Assembly (NCBI GenBank): GCA_050246895.1
Contig: JBFWVE010000003.1
Location: 391,240-455,239, forward strand
DNA from: Vicinamibacteria bacterium
GTDB lineage: Bacteria > Acidobacteriota > Vicinamibacteria > Fen-336
Reading direction: 5' to 3'
Length of the DNA stretch: 64,000 bases
In this document: one piece after another, positions 5,037 through 22,773 of the stretch
Layout of the letters: each line of letters begins with the position of its first letter
Position numbering within the stretch: the stretch's first letter is position 1
The notes under the pieces: model-generated
Told to the model about the DNA's origin: nothing
The model's database searches: none
Seen by the model: only the letters and a program-made list of their open reading frames with translations
Translations under genes and position numbers: made by a program

Positions 5037-5315
5037 CTAGGACTTGCTCTTGAACATCCGGAGCATGCGGTGGGTGACCATGAAGCCCCCCACCACGTTG
5101 ATCGTGGCGAACACCACCGCGAAGAAGCCGAGCACGGTCGTGACCTGGTTCTCGGTGCCGGCCGACACCAGAGCGCCCACCAGCGTGATCCCCGAGATCG
5201 CGTTGGAGCCGGAGGTGAGCGGGGTGTGCAGCGTGGGCGGGACCTTGCGGATCACCTCGAAACCCACGAAGACGGCCAGCACGAAGATGGTGAGCGCGAT
5301 GACGAAGGTCTCCAT
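5037..5315 (-). CDS. pntA: NAD(P) transhydrogenase subunit alpha part 2 (small membrane subunit)
   Basis: A 92-aa protein with 3 TM helices, positioned between the PntAA and PntB genes as in split PntAA/PntAB systems. Confidence 0.85.
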   Translation of the reverse strand: METFVIALTIFVLAVFVGFEVIRKVPPTLHTPLTSGSNAISGITLVGALVSAGTENQVTTVLGFFAVVFATINVVGGFMVTHRMLRMFKSKS

Positions 5316-8127: not shown

Positions 8128-11073
8128 ATGCCGCTGCATCCCTCGTCTCCCGCGCGCCGCCGGCCCGACTTCCACGACCTGATGCGCTTCCGCATCTGGG
8201 ACGTGCTGCTGGTGGCGCGCCCCTACGACTCCTTCATCCTGGAGGAGGCGGGCCAGCTCGCCGAGCGCATGCTGGGCGAGTTCCGCAACCTGGACCTGCA
8301 CTACGCGCCGGGCCTGACGAACGTCGCGACCGGCGCCGAGGCGCTGGCGATCGCCCGCGAGCAGCCGCGCTTCAACCTGGTGGTCTCGGCGCTGCAGCTG
8401 CAGGACATGAACGGCGCCGAGCTCGCGCGGCGCATGCGCGCGGCCGGCCTCGACGTGCCGCTGGTGCTGCTGGCGTTCGACAACCGGGAGCTGAAGGACT
8501 TCGCCGCGCGCCACGACCTGGCGGACGTCGAGCGGCTGTTCCTCTGGCAGGGCGACGACCGCATCCTGCTGGCGATGGTGAAGACCATCGAGGACAGCCG
8601 CAACGTCGACCACGACACCGCCGCCGTCGGCGTGCAGGTGATCCTGCTGGTCGAGGACAACGTCCGCTACTACTCGTCGTTCCTGCCCGAGATCTACGCC
8701 GAGCTGCTGCACCACTCGCAGCGGCTGATCGCCGAGGGCGTCAACCTCTCGCAGAAGATCACGCGCATGCGCGCGCGCCCCAAGATCCTGCTGGCGGGCA
8801 GCTTCGAGGAGGCCTGGGAGCTGTTCACGCGCCACCAGCAGGACGTGCTGGGCGTCGTCTCCGACATCGAGTTCCCGCGCGAGGGCCGCTGGTCGGCGGA
8901 GGCGGGCCTCGAGCTCGCCCGGCTCGTCAAGCAGAGCTGGCCCGACGTGCCGGTGCTGCTGCAGTCCTCGCGGCCCGAGAACGAGGCGCCGGCGCTGGCG
9001 GCCGGGGCCGAGTTCGTGCTGAAGGGCTCGCCCCTGCTGCTGCAGGAGCTGCGCCGCTTCATGCTCGCGAACTTCGGCTTCGGCGACTTCGTGTTCCGCC
9101 GGCCGGATGGCAGCGAGGTGGCGCGCGCGGCGGATCTGCGCAGCCTGGAAGAGCAGCTCGGCAGGGCGCCCGCCGAGAGCATCGCCTATCACGCGGAGCG
9201 AAACCACTTCTCGAAGTGGCTGAAGGCGCGCACGGAATTCGAGCTGGCCGAGGAGCTGCGGCCCAAGCGGCTCTCGGACTACGACGGCATCGAGGCGCTG
9301 CGCGCGAGCCTGATCGGCGCCGTCGACTCCTACCGCCGGGCGCGCGCGCAGACCGTGGTGGCGGACTTCGATCGCGACAGCTTCGACCCCCTCGACTTCC
9401 ACCGCGTGGGCGGCGGCTCGCTGGGCGGCAAGGCGCGCGGGCTCGCCTTCATGCGGCAGCTGCTCGGCGAGTCACGGCTGGCCCAGGAGTTCCCGGGCGT
9501 GCGGCTGGCGGTGCCGCCCGCGGTCGTGCTGGGCACCGACGTCTTCGAGGCCTTCCTCGACGACAACGAGCTGCGCGATTTCGCGATCCAGGAGCGGGAC
9601 GACGCGCGCATCGTCGAGCGCTTCCTGGCCGCGCGGCTGCCGGAGCCGATCGTGGAGGACCTGAGCGCCTACCTGGAGCGCGTCAGCGTGCCGCTGGCGG
9701 TGCGTTCCTCCAGCCTGCTGGAGGACTCGCAGTACCAGCCGTTCACGGGCGTCTACGACACCTTCATGCTGCGCAACTCCGACGCCTTCCTCGGGCGCCG
9801 GCTGAGCGAGCTGCAGCACGCGATCAAGCGCGTCTACGCCTCGACCTTCAGGCGCCGCAGCAAGGACTACATCCGCGCGACGCCCTACCGCCTGGAGGAG
9901 GAGAAGATGGCGGTGATCGTGCAGCGCATCGTGGGCGCGCGGCGGGGCGCGCGCTTCTACCCCGACTTCGCGGGTGTCGCGCGCTCGCACAACTTCTACC
10001 CGACGCCTCCGCTCGAGGCCGGGGACGGCATCGCGGCCGTCGCGATCGGCCTCGGGCGCACGGTGGTCGAGGGCGGCAACTGCCTGCGCTTCAGCCCGCG
10101 CTACCCGCGCCACTCGCTCGGCTCGCGCGAGGCGGCCGACCTGGTGCGCGCCTCGCAGGGGTCGTTCTGGGCGCTGGCCCTCGAGGGGGCGGATGAGGCG
10201 GATCTGGGCGAGACCCGTTACGACCTCTCGGCGGCCGAGCAGGACGGCGTGCTCGCGCCGCTCGCCTCGACCTGGTCGGCCGAGAACGACGTGCTGACGG
10301 ACGGGATCGGGCGCAGCGGAGTGCGGGTGGTCACCTTCTCCGGCCTGCTGAAGCACGAGGGCTTCCCGCTGGCGCCGATCCTGCGCCGCCTGCTGGAGGT
10401 CGCCGAGTGGGGGCTCGGCGCACCGGTCGAGATCGAGTTCGCCGTCGACCTCTCGGCGGCCGCCGGTGAGGCCGAGTTCGGCTTCCTGCAGCTGCGCCCT
10501 CTGGCGCTCTCGCGGGAGGTCGAGGCGCTCGAGATCGGCGAGGTCGATCCCGCTCGCGTGCTGTGCCGCAGCTCGCACGTGCTCGGCCACGGCCGCATCG
10601 ACGACGTGCGCGACGTGGTGGTGGTCGACCATGCGAGCTTCGAGCGGATCCACAGCCGGCAGACCGCGCTCGAGCTGGCCCAGCTGAACGCGGAGCTGCT
10701 CGCCGAGGGCGCGCCCTACCTGCTCGTGGGCGTCGGCCGCTGGGGCTCGGCCGATCCCTGGCTCGGCATCCCGGTCGGCTGGGATCAGATCAACGGCGCG
10801 CGCGTGATCGTGGAGGCGGGCTTCCGCGACTTCAAGGTCACGCCCTCGCAGGGCACGCACTTCTTCCAGAACCTGACGTCGTTCAACGTCGGCTACTTCA
10901 CCGTCAATCCCGACGCCGGCGACGGCAGTGTCGATTGGGACTGGCTGCGCGCCCAGCCCGCGCTGCGGCAGACCGAGCGCGTGCGCCGCATCCGGCTCGG
11001 GGCGCCGCTGGTCGTGCAGATGAACGGCCGCAAGGGCGAGGGCGTGATCCTCAAGCCGCCCCCCCACCCCTGA
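8128..11073 (+). CDS. Multidomain protein: two N-terminal receiver-like (CheY-like) domains followed by a PPDK_N-type PEP-utilising/ATP-grasp nucleotide-binding domain and a conserved C-terminal domain (RWGSADPWLGIP...PSQGTHFFQNL).
   Basis: Receiver-like stretch ILLVEDNVRYYSSF. PPDK_N-like motifs GGSLGGKARGLAFMRQL, LAVRSSSLLED, KMAVIVQRIV. The C-terminal domain is shared with the two downstream paralogs. Confidence 0.75.
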   Translation: MPLHPSSPARRRPDFHDLMRFRIWDVLLVARPYDSFILEEAGQLAERMLGEFRNLDLHYAPGLTNVATGAEALAIAREQPRFNLVVSALQLQDMNGAELARRMRAAGLDVPLVLLAFDNRELKDFAARHDLADVERLFLWQGDDRILLAMVKTIEDSRNVDHDTAAVGVQVILLVEDNVRYYSSFLPEIYAELLHHSQRLIAEGVNLSQKITRMRARPKILLAGSFEEAWELFTRHQQDVLGVVSDIEFPREGRWSAEAGLELARLVKQSWPDVPVLLQSSRPENEAPALAAGAEFVLKGSPLLLQELRRFMLANFGFGDFVFRRPDGSEVARAADLRSLEEQLGRAPAESIAYHAERNHFSKWLKARTEFELAEELRPKRLSDYDGIEALRASLIGAVDSYRRARAQTVVADFDRDSFDPLDFHRVGGGSLGGKARGLAFMRQLLGESRLAQEFPGVRLAVPPAVVLGTDVFEAFLDDNELRDFAIQERDDARIVERFLAARLPEPIVEDLSAYLERVSVPLAVRSSSLLEDSQYQPFTGVYDTFMLRNSDAFLGRRLSELQHAIKRVYASTFRRRSKDYIRATPYRLEEEKMAVIVQRIVGARRGARFYPDFAGVARSHNFYPTPPLEAGDGIAAVAIGLGRTVVEGGNCLRFSPRYPRHSLGSREAADLVRASQGSFWALALEGADEADLGETRYDLSAAEQDGVLAPLASTWSAENDVLTDGIGRSGVRVVTFSGLLKHEGFPLAPILRRLLEVAEWGLGAPVEIEFAVDLSAAAGEAEFGFLQLRPLALSREVEALEIGEVDPARVLCRSSHVLGHGRIDDVRDVVVVDHASFERIHSRQTALELAQLNAELLAEGAPYLLVGVGRWGSADPWLGIPVGWDQINGARVIVEAGFRDFKVTPSQGTHFFQNLTSFNVGYFTVNPDAGDGSVDWDWLRAQPALRQTERVRRIRLGAPLVVQMNGRKGEGVILKPPPHP

Positions 11074-14000
11074 CACCCCTCCCCCCTCCGCCGCCGAGCG
11101 GCAGCTCGCGCGCGGCGTCGGTGACGGCGTGGATCTTCGCGGCGTGCCCGCTCTGGGCCTCGACCTCGGCGTCGTCCACGAAGCGCACGTCGAGCAGCTC
11201 CGCCACGCGCTGGCCCGTGCGCAGGAAGTTGGCCTCCGCCAGCGCCTGGCTCCAGCCGTACAGCCAAGCGTCGAGGGCCGCGCGCTGCTCGGGGCTGCCC
11301 GAGAAGTGCACCAGCAGGTCGAGGTCGCTCGCGGGCCGCGCGCTGCCGCCGAGCGCGCTGCCGTAGACGTAGACCGCGCGCACGCCGAAGCGCGGGGCGT
11401 CCAGCGAGGCGGCCAGCCGCTCGGCCATGCCGAGTCGCCAGCGCGAGTGGTCGCCGGCCGGCAGCGCCGGAGCGGAGAAGCCGGACACCGCTTCGCCCGA
11501 GGCGTCCGCGGAGACCAGGTAGCCGAGCGCCTCGTCCTGCTCCGCGTTCATGGCTACCCGCAGCAGCTGGCCCTCGGTCGCCCGCGGGATCTCGATCACG
11601 CGCACGACGGGGGCGAGCGCCGCGTGTTCGGGCAGCAGCTCGGCGAGCAGGTTGGGAGCGCCCCGGAAGAACTCCTCGCGGAAGGCGACGCCAGGGTCGT
11701 CGGGATACAGCGGCAGGTAGCGGATCTGCGACTCGACGAGGTCCTGGAAGAAGTGGGTGCCGAAAGAGAGATCAGGCACGTAGTGGCCTCGCTTGCGCGC
11801 GACCTCCACCAATAGCGCGGCGTTCGAGATGTCCGCGTAGGTCACGCCGACGCCGAGCCGGACGTCGCCGCGGCTGCCCCAGCGCCCGGGGCCCAGCAGC
11901 GCGAAACGCCGCTTCGGCAACAGCGCGTTCAGCCGGCCGACCGCGCGGCCGACGCTGCGCAGGTCCTGCAGCGAGGCAATGCCCGCGTAGCCGTCGGGAT
12001 CCACGTAGACGACGTGGCTGAGGTCGGGCAGCCGGCCGTTCGACACGTGCCGGTGCGCCGAGAACAGCACGCGCTCGGCCGGGAGGCCGCGCGGGATCGG
12101 GGCGGGCGCCGCATCGGCCGAGCGGCTCTGCGGCCGGCATTGCACCAGGTAGAGGTCGCGCCCGTCGTGCGCGAACTCGAGATCCACCGGCGTGGCGAGC
12201 GACTCGCGCAGCGCGTCGAGCAGCGCGCGCATGCCAGCCACGAAGGGGCTGCGCGAGACGAGCCCCTCGAAGTCGAAGACGAGCTCCGGGCCCTTGCCGT
12301 CGAGGTCGAGCCAGCCGGCGGGGCGGATGCGCTCGCTCTCGAACACGGAGACGAGCTCCGCGAGCAGCGGGTACGCGGTGCCCACCTCGCGCAGCAGCGC
12401 GGCCACCGGGAGCGTCTCGAAGCCGCCGCCCTCGAGATCGATCACGTCCACCATTCGCGGTGCATAGCGGCGAATGTCCTCGGCCGAGACGTTGACGCGC
12501 AGCCCCGGCTGGCCCGGTGCTACCAGCATCGGGTAGTCGTCCGCCAGCCGGTCGACGGCGCGCGTGCCGAGGCCCGGCACCAGGCGCAGCAGCCCGTCCT
12601 CCCGCCGGATGCGCGGTGACCAGCGCAGCTCGTTGTGGCTGAAGGCGACGCCCGAGAAAGCCGGCAGGAAGTAGCGGCCGACGCGGGTGCCGACCACCTC
12701 CTGGATCATCACGGCCATCTCCTCGTGGTGCTCGAGGAGCCCCCGCTCGCTGCGGTACTGGATGGGGTCGGGGCTGAACGTCGAGGCGTACACCTCGGCG
12801 ATCGCGTCGAGCAGCGCCGCGAGGCGCTCGCGCTTGTCGCCCCGGTTGGCCAGGAACAGGCTCTTGTACTTGCCCGAGAAGGCGGAGCCCGCCCGGTCCT
12901 CGAGCAGGCTCGAGCTGCGCACGATCAGCGGCCGGTCGCCGAGGTCGTCGAGGTCGTCGAGCGCGCGCGCGACGCCGTGCTCGATCTCGGGCGGGAAGCG
13001 CGAGTTCTTGAACAACTGCAGGACGTGCGGGTACTCCTGTCGGATCTGATCGACCTGCCGGTATTTCCAGGTGTAGACCTCGTCGAGATCGTTGTAGGCC
13101 ACGAAGTGCAGGATGCCGTCCGACGGTAGGTACCAGGTGCGCGGGAAGCGCACCTCCGCGTGCACGCCGGCGAGCTCGGGCGAGCGGCGCAGCACCTGGC
13201 GCGCCAGGAAGAGGCCGCTCGCCTTGCCGCCCAGGCGGCCGTGGCTGCGCGGCAGCTGGATCGTGCGCGCGATCAGCTCGAAGAAGTCCTCGACCTCGGC
13301 GAAGCGGCGCACCGCGGCGATCGAGTCCTGCTGCTCGGTCAGCAGGCGGCGCGCGAGCGCGCTCACGAGCCCGACCTGCGTCGCCTGCGGCAGCTCGCGC
13401 GAGTGGACCCCGGTGCGCTGGAAGCGCTCGACGGAGTTGCCGATCTCGACCAGCGAGGTGTAGGGCGTCTCGAGCGCCTGCACGAGGAACTCGACCCGGT
13501 CCTCGCGGATCCAGGCCTGCACCATCGAGAGGATCTCGGCCTCCGGCAGGTGGGTCGCGGCGATGTGGAAGGTGCGCTCGAGACTGGCCTCGTCCTGTGG
13601 CACCGCTCGCGCCAGCGGGCGGTTCTCGTCCTCGGGAGGGCTGCTGGCAGGCGGCTTCGGCGCCAGGCTCGCGAGCAGCTCGCGCGCCTCGGGGGCGCCC
13701 ATCCACGCCAGGTGGTTGAGCAGCCGCCGCGCGATGCGCCGGTAGAGGTTGCGGTCGGTGTTGCGGAGCAGGCCGAGGATCACCTCGACGTTCTCGCCGC
13801 GCCGCGCCGGCGCTTGCGGCGGCGCCAGCGGGCGCGCTTCGCGCCGCGCCAAGTGGTCCGACAGCCGCGCCGCGATGGTGTCGATCAGCCGGCGCTCCTC
13901 TTTCAGGAAGGGCCCCTCGTCGGCCGGCGGGAACCCGTGGACGTAGGTCGCCGTCACCACGCCGGCACGCCGGCCGGCCAGCACGATCGGCGCCGAAAGC

Positions 14001-17943: not shown

Positions 17944-18402
17944 ATGGCCGGGGCCCGGGCCGAGCTGGCGCAGGCCGTCTCCGAGCGGCTGGGCTCGAGC
18001 GACACGCCCCACTACCGCGCGCTCACGAGCGACGAGCTGCGCTCCCGCGTCGCGCAACTGGTGGAGGCCTTCGTCGGGGGCTTCACGGACCCGGAGGCGC
18101 TCGGGCTGCACGTGCGCCAGCTCGCCGACGAACGCCAGCACGAAGGCTTCCGCCTGGAAGAGCTGCAGGTCGCGCTGAGCGCCCTGGAAGAGTGCGCCTG
18201 GCGCGTCGCCGAGCGCGCGGTCACCGACGTCGCGGTCCTGGTCCCGCGCCTGGCCGCCGTCAGCGGCAGCCTGGGCCGTGCCAAGGACGAGCTGGCCCGC
18301 GCCTTCCTCGACCGCTCCCTCGCCGCCGAACGCCACGCCAAAGCCCTCGAGCTCCGCCTCGCCGACCTGTTCAAGGGCACGGAAGAAGCGCCGATCGATT
18401 GA
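17944..18402 (+). CDS. Hypothetical alpha-helical protein (~150 aa) directly following uspA. A GTG start near 17912 is also possible.
   Basis: Its composition is non-RG-rich and protein-like (…LEELQVALSALEECAWRVAERAV…), and it is co-directional and contiguous with uspA. I recognised no domain. Confidence 0.4.
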   Translation: MAGARAELAQAVSERLGSSDTPHYRALTSDELRSRVAQLVEAFVGGFTDPEALGLHVRQLADERQHEGFRLEELQVALSALEECAWRVAERAVTDVAVLVPRLAAVSGSLGRAKDELARAFLDRSLAAERHAKALELRLADLFKGTEEAPID

Positions 18403-18413
18403 GCCGGGGGGCT

Positions 18414-18662
18414 CGCAGACGCAGCGGGTCGCGACGCCCCGCCAGGTCGCGGCGCGACCCGCGAGTGATTTCCCCTCCCCCGTATGTGGGGAGGGGATAG
18501 GGGTGGGGGGTCGATGATGACGCAGGCTTGTGCGTGCGGTTGGGGGCCCGCAGACGCAGCGGGTCGCGACGCCCCTTCAGGTCGCGGCGCGACCCGCGAG
18601 TGATTCCCCCTCCCCCGTATGTGGGGAGGGGATAGGGGTGGGGGGTCGATGATGACGCAGGC
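18414..18662. repeat. Tandem direct repeat of a 114-bp intergenic element (copy 1 at 18414-18527, copy 2 at 18549-18662, with 3 mismatches and a 21-bp spacer). Each copy contains two strong hairpins: GGGTCGCG…CGCGACCC and CCCCTCCCC-gtatgt-GGGGAGGGG.
   Basis: Read directly from the sequence. It lies between convergent genes (hypothetical + and hypB −). The 114-aa ORF through it (18371..18715 −) translates the repeat (…STPHPYPLPTYGGG… twice) and is spurious. Confidence 0.85.
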
Positions 18663-19391
18663 CTAGTGCCCGTGGCTGTGCGCGTGCGCGTGCACGTCCT
18701 TGGCTTGAGCGGCACGCTTCGCCTCGAGCCAGGCGACGAACGCGTCGATGCCGGCGCCGGTCGTCGCCGAGACGTGCAGCGCCTCGAAGCACGGCATCAC
18801 CCGGCGCAGCGAGTCCTCGTAGGCGGCGAGCGAGATGCCCGGCAGGTGCGGCAGCAGGTCGATCTTCGTCAGCAGCACGAGGTCGGCCCCATGGAACATC
18901 GCGGGGTACTTGAGGGGCTTGTCGACGCCCTCGGTCATCGACAGCGCGACCACGTTGGCCGCCTGGCCCAGGTCGTACACCGCCGGGCAGACCAGGTTGC
19001 CGACGTTCTCGACGAACAGCAGGTCCAGCGAGCGCGAGTCGAAGCGGTGCAGCGCCTCGTGCACCATGTCGGCGTCGAGATGGCAGGCGGAGCCGGTGGT
19101 GATCGCCAGCGAGGGCACGCCGGCGGCGCGCAGGCGGTCCGCGTCGTTCTCGGTCGCGAGGTCGCCGGCCAGCGCTCCCAGCCGGCGGCGGCCGGCGAGG
19201 CGCCGAGCGACCGCCTCCAGCACGGCCGTCTTGCCGGATCCCGGCGAGCCCATCAGGTTGACGGCCAGCACGCCCTGCTCGCGGAAGTGCGCGCGGTTGT
19301 GCGCGGCCTGGCGATCGTTGGCGGCCAGCACGCGCTCCTGCACCTCGACGGGCACGATCTTCGTGTCGCCGCAGCCGCACGTATCGCACAT
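18663..19391 (-). CDS. hypB: Hydrogenase nickel incorporation GTPase HypB. The start is the internal Met MCDTCGCGD, whose ATG overlaps the hypA stop.
   Basis: N-terminal CxxCGC metal site, P-loop GSPGSGKT, and a C-terminal His-rich tail HAHAHSHGH. Confidence 0.9.
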   Translation of the reverse strand: MCDTCGCGDTKIVPVEVQERVLAANDRQAAHNRAHFREQGVLAVNLMGSPGSGKTAVLEAVARRLAGRRRLGALAGDLATENDADRLRAAGVPSLAITTGSACHLDADMVHEALHRFDSRSLDLLFVENVGNLVCPAVYDLGQAANVVALSMTEGVDKPLKYPAMFHGADLVLLTKIDLLPHLPGISLAAYEDSLRRVMPCFEALHVSATTGAGIDAFVAWLEAKRAAQAKDVHAHAHSHGH

Positions 19392-19739: not shown

Positions 19740-20573
19740 TCAGCGCCCGCCGAAGCGGGGCGGCCGCTTCTCGAAGAAGGCGGCGATGCCCTCGGCGCAG
19801 TCCGGCGTGTCGGCGATGCGGGCGAGCTCCTCCAGCTCGCGGTCGAGGTGGACGTCGAGCCGGTCGCTGGCCGAGGCGGCGTGCAGCAGCGCCTTGGTGA
19901 CGGCGTAGGAGCGCGTCGGTCCGGCGGCGAGCGTCGCGGCCACGCGCCGCACCTCGGCCTCGAAGGCGTGCTCGGGGATCACCTCGCTGACGAGACCCAT
20001 CCGCCAGGCGCGCGCGGCGTCGAGCCGCGGGTTCAGGAACGCGAGATCGAAGGCGCGGCGCAGGCCGACGAGCCGCGGCAGGAAGAAGGTCGAGCTTTCG
20101 GCGCCGGTCAGCGCCGTCTTGGGATAGGCCCACTCGAAGCTCGCGCGCGAGGACGCGAGCACCAGGTCGCAGGCCATCGCCAGGCCGAAGCCGCCCGCGG
20201 CCGCGACGCCGTCGACCGCCGCCAGCACCGGCTTCGGCGCGCGCTTCAGCTCGGAGATCGTGGAGTGCAGGTACTCCAGGATCTGCTTGAAGCGCTCCCC
20301 GTAGCCGGCGGGGATCTCGCGCGAAGCGGGCTGCAGGTAGCCGAGGTCGGCGCTCTCGCCGCCCGAGCGGATGTACTTGAGGTCGGCGCCGCTGCAGAAG
20401 ACGCCGTTCGTGCCCTGCAGCACCACGCAGCGCACGCTCTCGTCGCGGCAGAGCGCGAGTCCGGCCTGGCGCAGGTCCTGGGCGGTGGCGACGTCGAGCG
20501 AGTTGAAGCGCTCGGGCCGGGCGATCGTCAGCCAGCCGACGCCGTCCTCGCGCGAGACGCGGATGTGGCGCAT
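19740..20573 (-). CDS. Enoyl-CoA hydratase/isomerase (crotonase-fold) protein embedded in the hyp operon. Its ATG overlaps the hypE stop.
   Basis: Crotonase oxyanion-hole motifs VVLQGTNGVFCSGADL and AAVDGVAAAGGFGLAMACD. It is 277 aa and starts at MRHIRVSREDG. The 5' 1.5 kb of the listed 767-aa ORF is a spurious out-of-frame overlap of hypE and hypD. Confidence 0.8.
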   Translation of the reverse strand: MRHIRVSREDGVGWLTIARPERFNSLDVATAQDLRQAGLALCRDESVRCVVLQGTNGVFCSGADLKYIRSGGESADLGYLQPASREIPAGYGERFKQILEYLHSTISELKRAPKPVLAAVDGVAAAGGFGLAMACDLVLASSRASFEWAYPKTALTGAESSTFFLPRLVGLRRAFDLAFLNPRLDAARAWRMGLVSEVIPEHAFEAEVRRVAATLAAGPTRSYAVTKALLHAASASDRLDVHLDRELEELARIADTPDCAEGIAAFFEKRPPRFGGR

Positions 20574-21616
20574 CAGCAGATCCTCGGCAGAGGCTCGCCT
20601 TCGATCTCGACCAGCAGCCGCCGCCCGAAGCCGGTGTCGAGCACGACCTGCCCCACCCGCTCGGCCACGCACTCGCCGACGATCGCGGCGTGCTGCCCCT
20701 GCGGCTGGCCGCGCAGCGCCGCCAGCACGGCGCCGGCCACGTGCGGCCGCACGCCGAGGAGCGCCTTGCCCTCGTTGGCGATCACGAGCGGATCGATGCC
20801 GAGCAACTCGGACGCCGCCCGCACCGCGGGCGTCACGGGCACGCTCGGCTCGTCGAGCACGATGCCGACGCCGCTCTTCTCGGCCATCTCGTGGAGCGCG
20901 CTCGCGAGCCCGCCGCGCGTGGGGTCCTTCAGCGTCACGACGCCGTCGCCGCCGGCGCGCAGCGCGGCCCTCACCAGCGCGTTGATCGGCGCCACGTCGG
21001 AGCGCAGGTCGCCGGAGAGCTCGAGCTTGTGGCGCGCCGCCATCACCGCGCAGCCGTGGTCGCCGACGCTGCCGCTGACGATCAGGCGGTCGCCGGGCCG
21101 CAGGCCGCTGTCGCGCACGACGCGGGCGGCCATGCCGATGCCCGTGGTGTTGAGCATCACGCCGTCGAGCTGCCCCCGGCCCATCACCTTGGTGTCGCCG
21201 GTGACGATCGTGGTGCCCGCCTCGCGACAGGCCTCGACCATCGAGGCGTGGATCCGTTCGAGGTCGGCGCGCGAGAAGCCCTCCTCCACCACCACGGCGC
21301 AGGTCAGCGCCAGCGGCTCGGTGGCGCCCATCATCGCGAGGTCGTTGACGGTGCCCGAGACCGCCAGCCGCCCGATGTCGCCGCCCGCGAAGAAGGCCGG
21401 CGAGACCACGTGCGAGTCCGTGGTGATCACCAGGAAGCCGTCGCCCAGCGGCAGCGCGGCGCCGTCGTCCATCGCGTCGAGACCGTAGAGTCCGGCGGGC
21501 CCCTCGGGGAAGCCGCCCGTCAGGACCTCGCGCACGAGCTGGCGCATGGCGCGCCCGCCCGCGCCGTGCTTCAGCAGGACCTTGTCCTCGAGCAGCGCCA
21601 GCCGCAGCGTCGTCAT
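20573..21616 (-). CDS. hypE: Hydrogenase maturation factor HypE (carbamoyl dehydratase). The start is taken at MTTLRLALLEDK.
   Basis: AIR-synthase-like fold and the conserved C-terminal ...PRIC. Confidence 0.9.
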   Translation of the reverse strand: MTTLRLALLEDKVLLKHGAGGRAMRQLVREVLTGGFPEGPAGLYGLDAMDDGAALPLGDGFLVITTDSHVVSPAFFAGGDIGRLAVSGTVNDLAMMGATEPLALTCAVVVEEGFSRADLERIHASMVEACREAGTTIVTGDTKVMGRGQLDGVMLNTTGIGMAARVVRDSGLRPGDRLIVSGSVGDHGCAVMAARHKLELSGDLRSDVAPINALVRAALRAGGDGVVTLKDPTRGGLASALHEMAEKSGVGIVLDEPSVPVTPAVRAASELLGIDPLVIANEGKALLGVRPHVAGAVLAALRGQPQGQHAAIVGECVAERVGQVVLDTGFGRRLLVEIEGEPLPRIC

Positions 21617-22773
21617 CGGCCTGCCTCCGCGAGCGAACCCGCCGCCAGATCGGGGTGGCCTCCGTAGAGGTGCCAGATCTTGCAGGTGCCCTCGCTCGAC
21701 ACCATGCAGGCGCCGACCGGCGTCTCGGGCAGGCACTCGCGCCCGAACAGCTTGCACTGCGGGGGCGAGGCGATCCCCGCCATGATGTCGCCGCAGATGC
21801 AGTCCTGCACCAGCGCCGGCGGCGCGTACTGCCACAGCGACTCGAGGTCGATCTCGAAGCGGCGGCGGGCGTCGAGCGGCGCCCACTCGTCGCGCAAGCG
21901 CAGGTTCCCGTTCGGCACGTGCGCGATGCCGCGCCAGCGGCCGCCGGCCGGGCGGAAGACGTGGAACAGCTGCTCGAGCGCGTTGCGGTTGCCCTCGCGG
22001 CTGACGCAGCGCGGGAACATGTTGACGACCTGCGGCCGGCCATCGCGCACGAGCTCGACGAGGCGCAGCAGGGCCGCCAGGATGTCGAGCGGCTCGAAGC
22101 CCGCGACCACCACCGGCAGGCGGTGGCGCAGGGCGAAGCCCTCGAAGATGCCCCAGCCCGTGATGGCGGCGGCGTGGCCGGCGGCCAGGAAGCCCTCGAC
22201 GCGCGACCCGGGCATCTCCGCCACGATCTCCATCACGGGCGGGATGTACTTGTGGGCCGAGAGCACCGAGAAGTTCGGCGGCACGCCGGCGAGCACGGCC
22301 GCCGCGGTCGCGACCGCCGTGGTCTCGAAGCCGGTCGCGAAGAAGACGACCTCGTCGCGCGAGCCGCGCGCCAGCTCGACCGCCTGGTTCACGCTGTAGA
22401 CGACCTCGACGCGCGCGCCTTCGGCCTGGACGTCGCCGAGCGACAGCACGCTGCCGGGGACCTTCAGCATGTCGCCGTAGGTGGCGATCGTCAGGCCCTG
22501 GCGCGCGAGCGCCACGCCCTCGTCCACCTCGGGCACGTCGGTGATGCAGACCGGGCAGCCGGGCCCCATGATCACGTCGAGCGACTTCGGGAAGGACGCG
22601 CGCAGGCCGTAGCGCGCGATCGCCTGCTCGTGGCTGCCGCAGACGTGCATCAGCGAGACGCGGCGGCCGAGCGCGTCGGCGGCCCCGCGCAGCGCGTCCG
22701 CCAGCGCGCGGGCCTGCTTCGGATCGCGGAACTTCATTTCCGCGGCGCCGGCGGGCAGCGACTCAGGCTTCAC
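21613..22773 (-). CDS. hypD: Hydrogenase maturation factor HypD. An alternative start at MKFRDP (22737) is possible.
   Basis: Motifs CGSHE, GPGCPVC and FETTA, with a C-terminal cysteine cluster CxxxC…C. Confidence 0.9.
   Translation of the reverse strand: MKPESLPAGAAEMKFRDPKQARALADALRGAADALGRRVSLMHVCGSHEQAIARYGLRASFPKSLDVIMGPGCPVCITDVPEVDEGVALARQGLTIATYGDMLKVPGSVLSLGDVQAEGARVEVVYSVNQAVELARGSRDEVVFFATGFETTAVATAAAVLAGVPPNFSVLSAHKYIPPVMEIVAEMPGSRVEGFLAAGHAAAITGWGIFEGFALRHRLPVVVAGFEPLDILAALLRLVELVRDGRPQVVNMFPRCVSREGNRNALEQLFHVFRPAGGRWRGIAHVPNGNLRLRDEWAPLDARRRFEIDLESLWQYAPPALVQDCICGDIMAGIASPPQCKLFGRECLPETPVGACMVSSEGTCKIWHLYGGHPDLAAGSLAEAGR

Follow-up and report, generated by a model that had tools for sequence, protein, structure and literature searches.

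The window analysed here, a stretch of 64,000 nucleotides from the 1.04-Mb contig JBFWVE010000003.1 of a metagenome-assembled Vicinamibacteria bacterium (Acidobacteriota), carries a tandem array of two structured repeats in the gap between a hypothetical RsbRD_N-like gene on the + strand and hypB on the - strand. The array is probably an inserted, non-coding and structure-prone DNA repeat, selfish in character and duplicated locally, without a dedicated role in the expression of hypB. Judged by its sequence, its core is an intrastrand triplex motif of the BoxC / PIT / TMECO type, a known kind of bacterial repeat. This reading draws on what is directly seen, namely the sequence architecture, the presence or absence of the array at the orthologous site, the broad distribution of the core and the bias in its gene context. 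Structure formation and instability, in contrast, we infer from E. coli and archaeal analogues and not from the window locus.

The repeat array and its core

The array consists of two direct repeats on the + strand, at 18407-18527 and 18542-18662, each 121 nt as detected (97% identity, period 135, TRF score 484) and differing from one another at four positions (18413, 18441, 18442 and 18471). An earlier note on this DNA had described a 114-bp tandem repeat with three mismatches and a 135-bp period, and the same count is obtained in the 114-bp frame; the unit, made up of hairpin 1 and the core, measures about 116-121 nt. A run of G5-6 stands before each copy. The copies are separated by a 14-nt spacer, ttgtgcgtgcggtt (18528-18541), whose final TT and the GGGGG that follows appear to resemble the TTGGGGGG of the empty site described below.

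Each copy holds the two hairpins that the earlier note had reported. Hairpin 1 occupies 18424-18462 in copy 1 (arms 18424-18437 and 18449-18462) and, 135 positions further on, 18559-18597 in copy 2 (arms 18559-18572 and 18584-18597), both on the + strand; its 14-nt arms are 93% complementary and enclose an 11-nt loop, and in copy 1 it includes the perfect palindrome GGTCGCG-G-CGCGACC (18445-18459). Hairpin 2, CCCCTCCCC-cgtatgt-GGGGAGGGG, is exact in both copies (18472-18496 and 18607-18631), against a chance expectation of 0, and is followed by ATA-GGGGTGGGGGG, a pattern never seen in shuffles. The folds of the array are predicted to be very stable on both strands (z-scores -3.9 and -4.7).

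What the earlier note had overlooked is that the C-arm and G-arm of hairpin 2 and the G-tail behind them together make up the three-block triplex motif of the BoxC/PIT/TMECO class. The core has the layout CCCCTCCCC-N7-GGGGAGGGG-ATA-GGGGTGGGG. In copy 1 (18472-18510, + strand) it comprises the C-arm at 18472-18480, a loop at 18481-18487, the G-arm at 18488-18496, the ATA spacer at 18497-18499 and the third strand GGGGTGGGG at 18500-18508, with the G-run extending to 18510; in copy 2 (18607-18645, + strand) the C-arm lies at 18607-18615, the G-arm at 18623-18631 and the third strand at 18635-18643, with the G-run extending to 18645. A pyrimidine arm, a loop, a purine arm, a second loop and a purine third strand thus follow each other on one strand (18472-18508 and 18607-18643). 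The arms CCCCTCCCC and GGGGAGGGG are Watson-Crick complementary at 9/9 positions, the class calling for at least 8 nt, and the third block, taken antiparallel to the G-arm, gives 9/9 allowed triads, eight of them G·G-C and the central one T·A-T. This class II purine type allows the triads G·G-C, A·A-T and T·A-T and tolerates a single mismatch. Two such motifs occur in the window and none in 20 window shuffles. The second loop, of 3 nt, lies within both sets of loop limits for intrastrand triplex searches (Hoyne, 0-10 nt; ITxF, 1-6 nt, as given in PMC4666352), and the first, of 7 nt, is inside Hoyne's range and one nucleotide over that of ITxF.

The same purine tracts, G4-A-G4-ATA-G4-T-G6, fit the canonical G-quadruplex motif (four tracts of at least 3 nt, loops of 1-7 nt), with predicted loops of 1, 3 and 1 nt between tracts of four or more G (G4-N1-G4-N3-G4-N1-G4). 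The G-quadruplex that the earlier note had thought possible is a textbook motif, and analogous sequences do fold into G-quadruplexes in vitro (PMC8044849, PMC5100583). In the G-quadruplex model of ViennaRNA the quadruplex is predicted at -40.8 kcal/mol and hairpin 2 at -22.4 kcal/mol.

An empty site between the same two genes

Three Logan contigs (L183, L184 and L185), reached through homologues of the small RsbRD_N-like gene, carry the orthologous convergent pair, with protein identities to the window of 84% for the + gene and 78% for hypB. The two genes are 12 nt apart in these contigs, in the arrangement TGA-GCTTGGGGGGTG-CTA, whereas the window reads TGA-GCCGGGGGG-(about 250 nt)-CTA. The segment GCCGGGGGG (18403-18411) is what is left of the ancestral 12-nt spacer, and the G6 run at its end (18406-18411) is the apparent insertion point; the portion of copy 1 that is missing at the empty site begins at about 18412. 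The comparison shows the entire array of about 250 nt, together with hairpin 1, as additional DNA behind the G6 run, and an insertion following that run is its simplest reading. Hairpin 1 as a native terminator of either flanking gene is ruled out by the same comparison, the empty site being without any hairpin.

Other relatives keep the hyp operon with different neighbours and without the element, and in a further contig (L187) the same G6 run is followed by a different, partly related and scrambled sequence. The relatives without the element and the scrambled sequence together indicate a hypervariable site. Contig L187 is the closest relative of the C-terminal half of the + gene (88% identity). 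At positions 355-430 the G6 run after its stop codon is followed by GGGGGG-CGCTGCGTCGCA-CCCCCC and then by pieces resembling parts of the window unit; its similarity to the reverse-complemented unit is patchy only, and no hypB occurs within the next 450 nt. On this sequence evidence the locus is rearranged. Two short-read contigs with a 100% identical hypB (L001 and L002; Logan SRR27751815 and SRR27751816) stop 40 nt into the array, for which the tandem repeat is sufficient alone as a cause.

Distribution of the core in other genomes

The pattern CCCCTCCCC-N7-GGGGAGGGG-N3-GGGGTGGGG, with 27 fixed bases and an estimated chance expectation of less than one match in 596 Gb, gave at least 121 exact matches in at least 112 stretches of a genome collection, from at least 12 phyla and from phage contigs. 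The matches listed include Nostocales and other cyanobacteria, Chloroflexota, Gemmatimonadota, Planctomycetota, Turneriella (Spirochaetota), Armatimonadota, the Caulobacterales, Hyphomicrobiales and Rhodobacterales (Alphaproteobacteria), Bacteroidota, Latescibacterota, Calditrichia, Dormibacterota, Clostridia and Acidobacteriota. The blocks are near-exact across these phyla, genomes of 40% GC included. Some genomes are multicopy, with 17 copies in the Gemmatimonadales metagenome-assembled genome (MAG) CAVTCB01 and 11 in Nostoc linckia NIES-25 among the matches listed. Viral contigs searched with a degenerate form of hairpin 2 showed the G4TG4 tail recurring 2-3 nt past the hairpin in unrelated sequences. 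The exact block pattern has six matches in viral contigs in the order seen here and none in the mirror order. In low-GC genomes, by crude open reading frame (ORF) calls, the core lies between convergent genes in 10 cases, between co-directional genes in 5+6 and between divergent genes in two, both core orientations being about equally frequent between co-directional genes.

The nearest relatives of the window core form an ATA-spacer subfamily, found in an Acidobacteriota MAG (L109) and in two metagenomes (L176 and L180), in which conservation runs only from the C-arm through GGTCG(A/C)TGA. The conserved 3' extension of the core, TCGATGA (18511-18517 in the window, + strand), is common to all three. 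The upstream hairpins of L109 and L176 are unrelated in sequence to hairpin 1 of the window, and in JGI metagenomes scanned for the ATA-spacer core that hairpin came up with no other copy. BLAST of the 135-bp period returned one core-only match from plasmids and none from phages. It follows from this limited conservation and the single core-only plasmid match that the family-wide module is about 45-50 nt long. The double hairpin, which had been put forward as the unit, thus holds for both window copies and not for the related ones, which keep only the core.

At two unrelated loci of the subfamily (L109:6152-6218, - strand; L176:3706-3760, + strand) the core ends in ...GGGGTGGGGGGTCG directly before ATGAAGATC. 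With the ATG of the latter begins, in L109, a gene with an ETF domain and, in L176, a PheT-like gene with a B3/4 domain. There the G-run of the core may serve in ribosome binding, or else ATGA may be the target of the element or be supplied by it.

Elsewhere, too, the core forms arrays, tandem or alternating (L180, L145, L125 and L136). Three cores with a period of 75-90 nt lie between genes in L180 (560-760), 46-nt core units stand directly in tandem in L145 (62-365), and in the low-GC Bacteroidales MAG of L136 (120-470) cores on the + and - strands alternate at a spacing of about 100 nt. The 7-nt hairpin loop, moreover, is found in both orientations within single repeat families (L175 and L178; L029 at 4243 and at 5145; Nostocales loci), as in the pairs GATGAAC/GTTCATC, ATGCTTT/AAAGCAT and TTGCTAA/TTAGCAA. 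Loops in both orientations point to hairpin recombination at the DNA level. A loop flip-flop of such a kind is described for chloroplast hairpins.

Often the core is a part of a larger repeat resembling a miniature inverted-repeat transposable element (MITE). A 231-bp MITE-like element of N. linckia NIES-25 (L092:4406-4636) has 43-nt terminal inverted repeats (TAGGGGTTTAGCAGTGCTCATACGTGTCAACTT...) and the core module at its centre, and 10 further core matches are listed from this genome and a plasmid belonging to it; another element of Nostocales, whose ends differ (TAGACCTCTTGCA...), holds the same module. Within Nostocales a CCCCACCCC / GGGGTGGGG stem closes the core into a three-way junction, and the variable arm of this junction shows compensatory changes. 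Dispersed repeats of 150-200 nt contain the core in two MAGs, one of Chloroflexales and one of Gemmatimonadales. In the latter, CAVTCB01 (L073, L080, L095, L099, L147 and others), the dispersed repeat of about 200 nt terminates exactly with the core, begins 170-190 nt past the stop codon of a co-directional gene and lies mostly between convergent genes. The core is placed after a long covarying hairpin in Anaerolineae and 3' of the major capsid gene in the phage contig L029. In Caulobacter radicis and C. hibisci (L068 and L074) it occurs at orthologous positions under a 522-codon ORF with a high third-position GC content (GC3), where it may sit within a coding region or right at its beginning.

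A link to the right end or omega-RNA of IS200/IS605 or TnpB elements was discarded, the length of an apparent ORF of about 440 aa, at a constant distance from the core in a Gemmatimonadales MAG, being an artefact of the 1500-nt analysis window and the ORF of L073 encoding an unrelated secreted protein. Transposases between paired cores were likewise dismissed: the intervening genes of phage contig L029 are structural and the Nostoc ORF (L092) is unrelated. A CRISPR-like array was ruled out for the window, which has only two copies and a 14-nt spacer.

Likeness to known structured repeats

Holder et al. (2015) give TMECO, formerly BoxC or the potential intrastrand triplex (PIT) of Hoyne et al. 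(2000), as CCCTCNCCC-N3-6-GGGNGAGGG-N3-GGGNGAGGG (PMC4666352). The copy in the convergent tauD-hemB gap of E. coli, CCCCTCGCCCCcttgGGGAGAGGGttaGGGTGAGGGGG, which was read directly, aligns with the window core block for block, through a 9-nt C-rich arm, a short loop, a complementary 9-nt G-rich arm, a 3-nt spacer (TTA or CCG in E. coli TMECO, ATA in the window) and a second 9-nt G-rich block. The two kinds of element also have in common that they are intergenic, often between convergent genes, may come in pairs and are tied to locus variability. They differ in the blocks themselves, which are C4TC4, G4AG4 and G4TG4 in the window but CCCTCNCCC and GGGNGAGGG in E. coli, and in the first loop, of 7 nt in the window and 3-6 nt in TMECO. 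The window has an extra upstream GC hairpin in its unit and a head-to-tail arrangement, whereas E. coli BoxC/PIT pairs are inverted, and its host is an acidobacterium instead of E. coli. Exact 21-mers of the array had no match in the literature, and the published link came by way of shorter strings.

In E. coli, TMECO elements are always intergenic, show no strand bias and are tied to local genome instability, and the isolated strand forms a stable triplex in vitro (PMC4666352). Of PIT elements the same paper states that they block DNA polymerase in vitro and, citing Hoyne & Maher (2002), that in E. coli they act neither as promoters nor as terminators and leave RNA polymerase unaffected. Kaplan et al. 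(2016) described the same E. coli loci as HPG1/HPG2, a switch between G-quadruplex, hairpin and duplex, with six of the 16 HPG1 copies between convergent genes and one between divergent genes (PMC5100583). These loci resemble the window element in having a quadruplex motif with an adjoining complementary C tract, but their tracts are of three G and those of the window of four; a regulatory role has only been proposed for them, and the window element sits downstream of both genes. In Methanomicrobiaceae, Chashchina et al. (2021) reported interspersed repetitive PQS (rPQS) that are in equilibrium between a hairpin, an antiparallel triplex and a G-quadruplex in vitro (PMC8044849). They are intergenic, about 50% tail-to-tail and 11% head-to-head, with a gene-independent orientation (PMC8044849), and their blocks G6TG5, G4AG5 and C5TC4 are nearly identical to those of the window. 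Their C tract, however, stands 3' of the G tracts and that of the window core 5', which places the core outside rPQS proper; Chashchina et al. state that the bacterial version carries the C tract on the 5' side (PMC8044849).

Repetitive extragenic palindromes (REP, REPIN) and MITEs share with the array that they are short, structured repeats, lie between genes, avoid promoters and occur in some relatives but not in others. The ends of the window unit, unlike those of MITEs, show no inverted repeats; what stands near either end is GACGCAG in direct orientation. A clear target-site duplication is likewise missing, GCCGGGGGG on one flank and GGTTGGGGG on the other agreeing at 6/9 positions only. 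In contrast to REP/REPIN, the whole array is without GTAG or CTAC and no link to a RAYT or transposase was established, no search aimed at RAYT having been made; moreover, REPs are lineage-specific whereas the core sequence is conserved across phyla. The earlier suggestion of a mobile, REP/MITE-like intergenic element stands in so far as the array is an inserted repeat, as the 12-nt empty site indicates; terminal inverted repeats, a clear target-site duplication and GTAG were not found.

Coding, terminator and RNA tests

The periodicity of GC3 indicates coding sequence on both sides of the array and gives no coding signal within it. A small ORF (MMTQACACGW..., of 29 aa in the first copy and only 5 aa in the second) was rejected, as it lacks periodicity and its coding is not conserved between the copies. 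The scan for terminator-like sites between 17800 and 19400 gave none; there is no T-tract, and the sequences right after the hairpins are GAGTGATT, ATAGGGG or AAATCAC. A scan of the array region for promoter-like sites found none. Rfam has no match at gathering score in the 64-kb window, where the best hit by E-value, Pab91, reaches 22.8 bits against a cutoff of 71 and is at chance level, and 17 motif-bearing loci from other genomes gave tRNAs only. Tandem small RNAs (sRNAs) of the Pxr type were excluded by the same scans.

A DNA-level reading and what weighs against it

The favoured reading, that of a selfish structured repeat, supposes that the element acts on the DNA level. Its G-rich strand, when transiently single-stranded during replication, repair or transcription, would fold into a hairpin, into a triplex of the hairpin with an antiparallel third strand, or into a four-layer G-quadruplex, and such folds would favour the stalling, slippage or template switching of polymerases. 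Slippage or template switching induced in this way would account for the second tandem copy, for the core arrays elsewhere and for the variability of the site among relatives, and the array would have persisted between two convergent stop codons because that position is the least harmful. We favour action as DNA because convergent contexts outnumber divergent ones, both orientations occur between co-directional genes, loops are flipped and core arrays recur, and because the window shows no T-tract terminator, promoter-like site or Rfam match.

Several points weigh against this reading. By inspection and alignment, GGGGAGGGG and GGGGTGGGG do not fit GGGNGAGGG, so that the core departs from the strict TMECO consensus, and in vivo dimethyl sulfate (DMS) footprinting in E. 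coli detected no stable triplex (PMC4666352). The 64-kb window holds in total only the two copies and one degenerate relic, described below, and insertion, as opposed to deletion, is deduced from two lineages only. The 14-nt spacer has no clear homology to either flank, which leaves a simple 135-bp tandem duplication unproven; since it matches neither flank well, a tandem duplication that took in flanking sequence and two separate insertions are both compatible with it, and two separate insertions, or filler DNA, are possible origins of the second copy. Finally, that the blocks are kept almost unchanged from phylum to phylum suggests selection on something, and 'selfish and functionless' may be too dismissive.

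Alternative explanations

The array could instead be a conventional non-autonomous transposable element of the MITE/REPIN kind, its 116-121-nt unit excised and reinserted, or copied, by the transposase of another locus of the genome, with the two copies representing two insertions or one beside an earlier one. The lack of the full unit, hairpin 1 included, at the orthologous empty site agrees with this, as do the target-like G5-6 run before each copy, the assembly breaks within the array and the residence of the core in the 231-bp N. linckia element and in the dispersed repeats of the Chloroflexales and Gemmatimonadales MAGs. We nevertheless hold it to be rather unlikely: the unit lacks terminal inverted repeats, a clear target-site duplication and GTAG, hairpin 1 is not common to the nearest core relatives (L109, L176 and L180) and reappeared neither in the JGI metagenome scan nor, with the 135-bp period, in plasmids and phages beyond the one core-only match, and Holder et al. 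found TMECO unlinked to mobile elements (PMC4666352). The link of the core to repeat families in Nostocales, Chloroflexales and Gemmatimonadales leaves the core itself possibly mobile. It would then be a tiny, horizontally spreading module of about 45-50 nt, hosted by unrelated small repeats and MITEs in more than 12 phyla and in phages, whose spread depends on structure without terminal repeats or a known transposase and which inserts at G-runs or directly beside stop and start codons; this is a tentative proposal and, taken as a whole, an unlikely one.

Explanations at the level of expression fare less well. One of them is an RNA 3'-end element serving both convergent transcripts, of the kind of the bidirectional terminators or stabilisers without a U-tract that are typical of high-GC bacteria; its GC hairpins, and a G-quadruplex on the + transcript, would halt RNA polymerase or keep off 3'-5' exonucleases. 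The position of the array exactly between two stop codons, its very stable predicted folds on both strands, the enrichment of the core family between convergent genes and the core after the major capsid gene of phage L029 would suit such a role. Against it, there is no T-tract and no terminator-like site, relatives cope with a 12-nt gap and no hairpin, and co-directional contexts show both orientations about equally; it is distinctly unlikely, and the plain bidirectional terminator of the earlier note is not supported, given the missing T-tract and the inactivity of PIT elements as terminators in E. coli that is reported in PMC4666352. Highly improbable is a switch between hairpin and G-quadruplex, in DNA or RNA, that tunes the adjacent genes by K+, temperature or supercoiling. 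The four tracts of four or more G with their short loops, the predicted quadruplex energy exceeding that of hairpin 2, the switch of this sort that Kaplan et al. proposed for the homologues in E. coli (PMC5100583) and the cores adjoining start codons in L109 and L176 speak for it; the window element, however, lies downstream of both genes and not in a 5' region, it is missing in close relatives with the same operon, no functional class is prominent among neighbouring genes and no effect on expression came up in the literature. A pair of sRNA genes or another structured non-coding RNA, as the earlier note had also considered, is scarcely credible in spite of the stable folding and of the compensatory changes in the variable stem of the Nostocales three-way junction, given the lack of an Rfam match above chance level, the promoter scan without a site, the orientation independent of neighbouring genes, the loop flip-flops, by which the loop sequence would not be read from one particular strand, and the reported failure of purine-motif triplexes to form in RNA.

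Flanking genes and a probable relic of the core

The upstream convergent gene, at 17944-18402 on the + strand, is supported by GC3 periodicity and has homologues with PF14361; it encodes 152 aa from MAGARAEL, the NCBI annotation AB7O37_13025 having 161 aa, and ends in TGA at 18400-18402. On the other side, hypB (18663-19391, - strand; Pfam cobW/HypB), whose product is 100% identical to an NCBI Vicinamibacteria HypB, has its stop codon (18663-18665) directly against repeat copy 2. The array thus spans the entire gap from the TGA of the RsbRD_N-like gene to the stop codon of hypB, just as the earlier note had placed it, by coordinates as well as by GC3 periodicity. Upstream of hypB in its operon lie hypA (Pfam HypA) and an enoyl-CoA hydratase (ECH)-family gene. 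The latter, an enoyl-CoA hydratase/isomerase-family gene of about 277-280 aa, stands between hypE and hypA within window positions 19740-22043 (- strand), where the longest ORF fuses it with its upstream gene, and the same hypE-[enoyl-CoA hydratase/isomerase]-hypA order is kept in the hyp operons of three Vicinamibacteria-like genomes (L169, L172 and L173). We take it to be similar to the ECH-like part of HypX.

A probable degenerate relic of the core, CCCCCCCACCCC-tgaca-CCCCTCCCCCC, lies at 11059-11086 on the + strand and retains the C-tail and C-arm without a G-arm; its motif score is 24, and shuffles do not exceed 21. It sits at the 23-nt overlap of two other convergent genes (window 11051-11101) and gives each of them an odd C-terminus, ...KPPPHP* for the + strand gene and ...GGGGGRGVRGGGAA* for the - strand gene.

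Significance

BoxC, PIT and triplex motifs became known in the 1990s; their function and mechanism of spread are still without an accepted explanation. What is new here is the comparison of a filled site of about 250 nt with an empty site of 12 nt between the same two genes. The window also adds a phylum, Acidobacteriota being without mention in the cited triplex-motif literature, and one exact block variant proves common to many phyla and to phage contigs, even at 40% GC. For annotation, such arrays fragment short-read assemblies, yield spurious G- or P-rich ORF extensions and should not be labelled terminators or sRNAs. Earlier studies in E. coli had not linked the motif to mobile DNA, whereas the core is found here embedded in repeats that bear terminal inverted repeats or are dispersed. 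If its mobility is true, the BoxC/PIT motifs would be recast as selfish, structure-driven DNA and not as regulatory signals.

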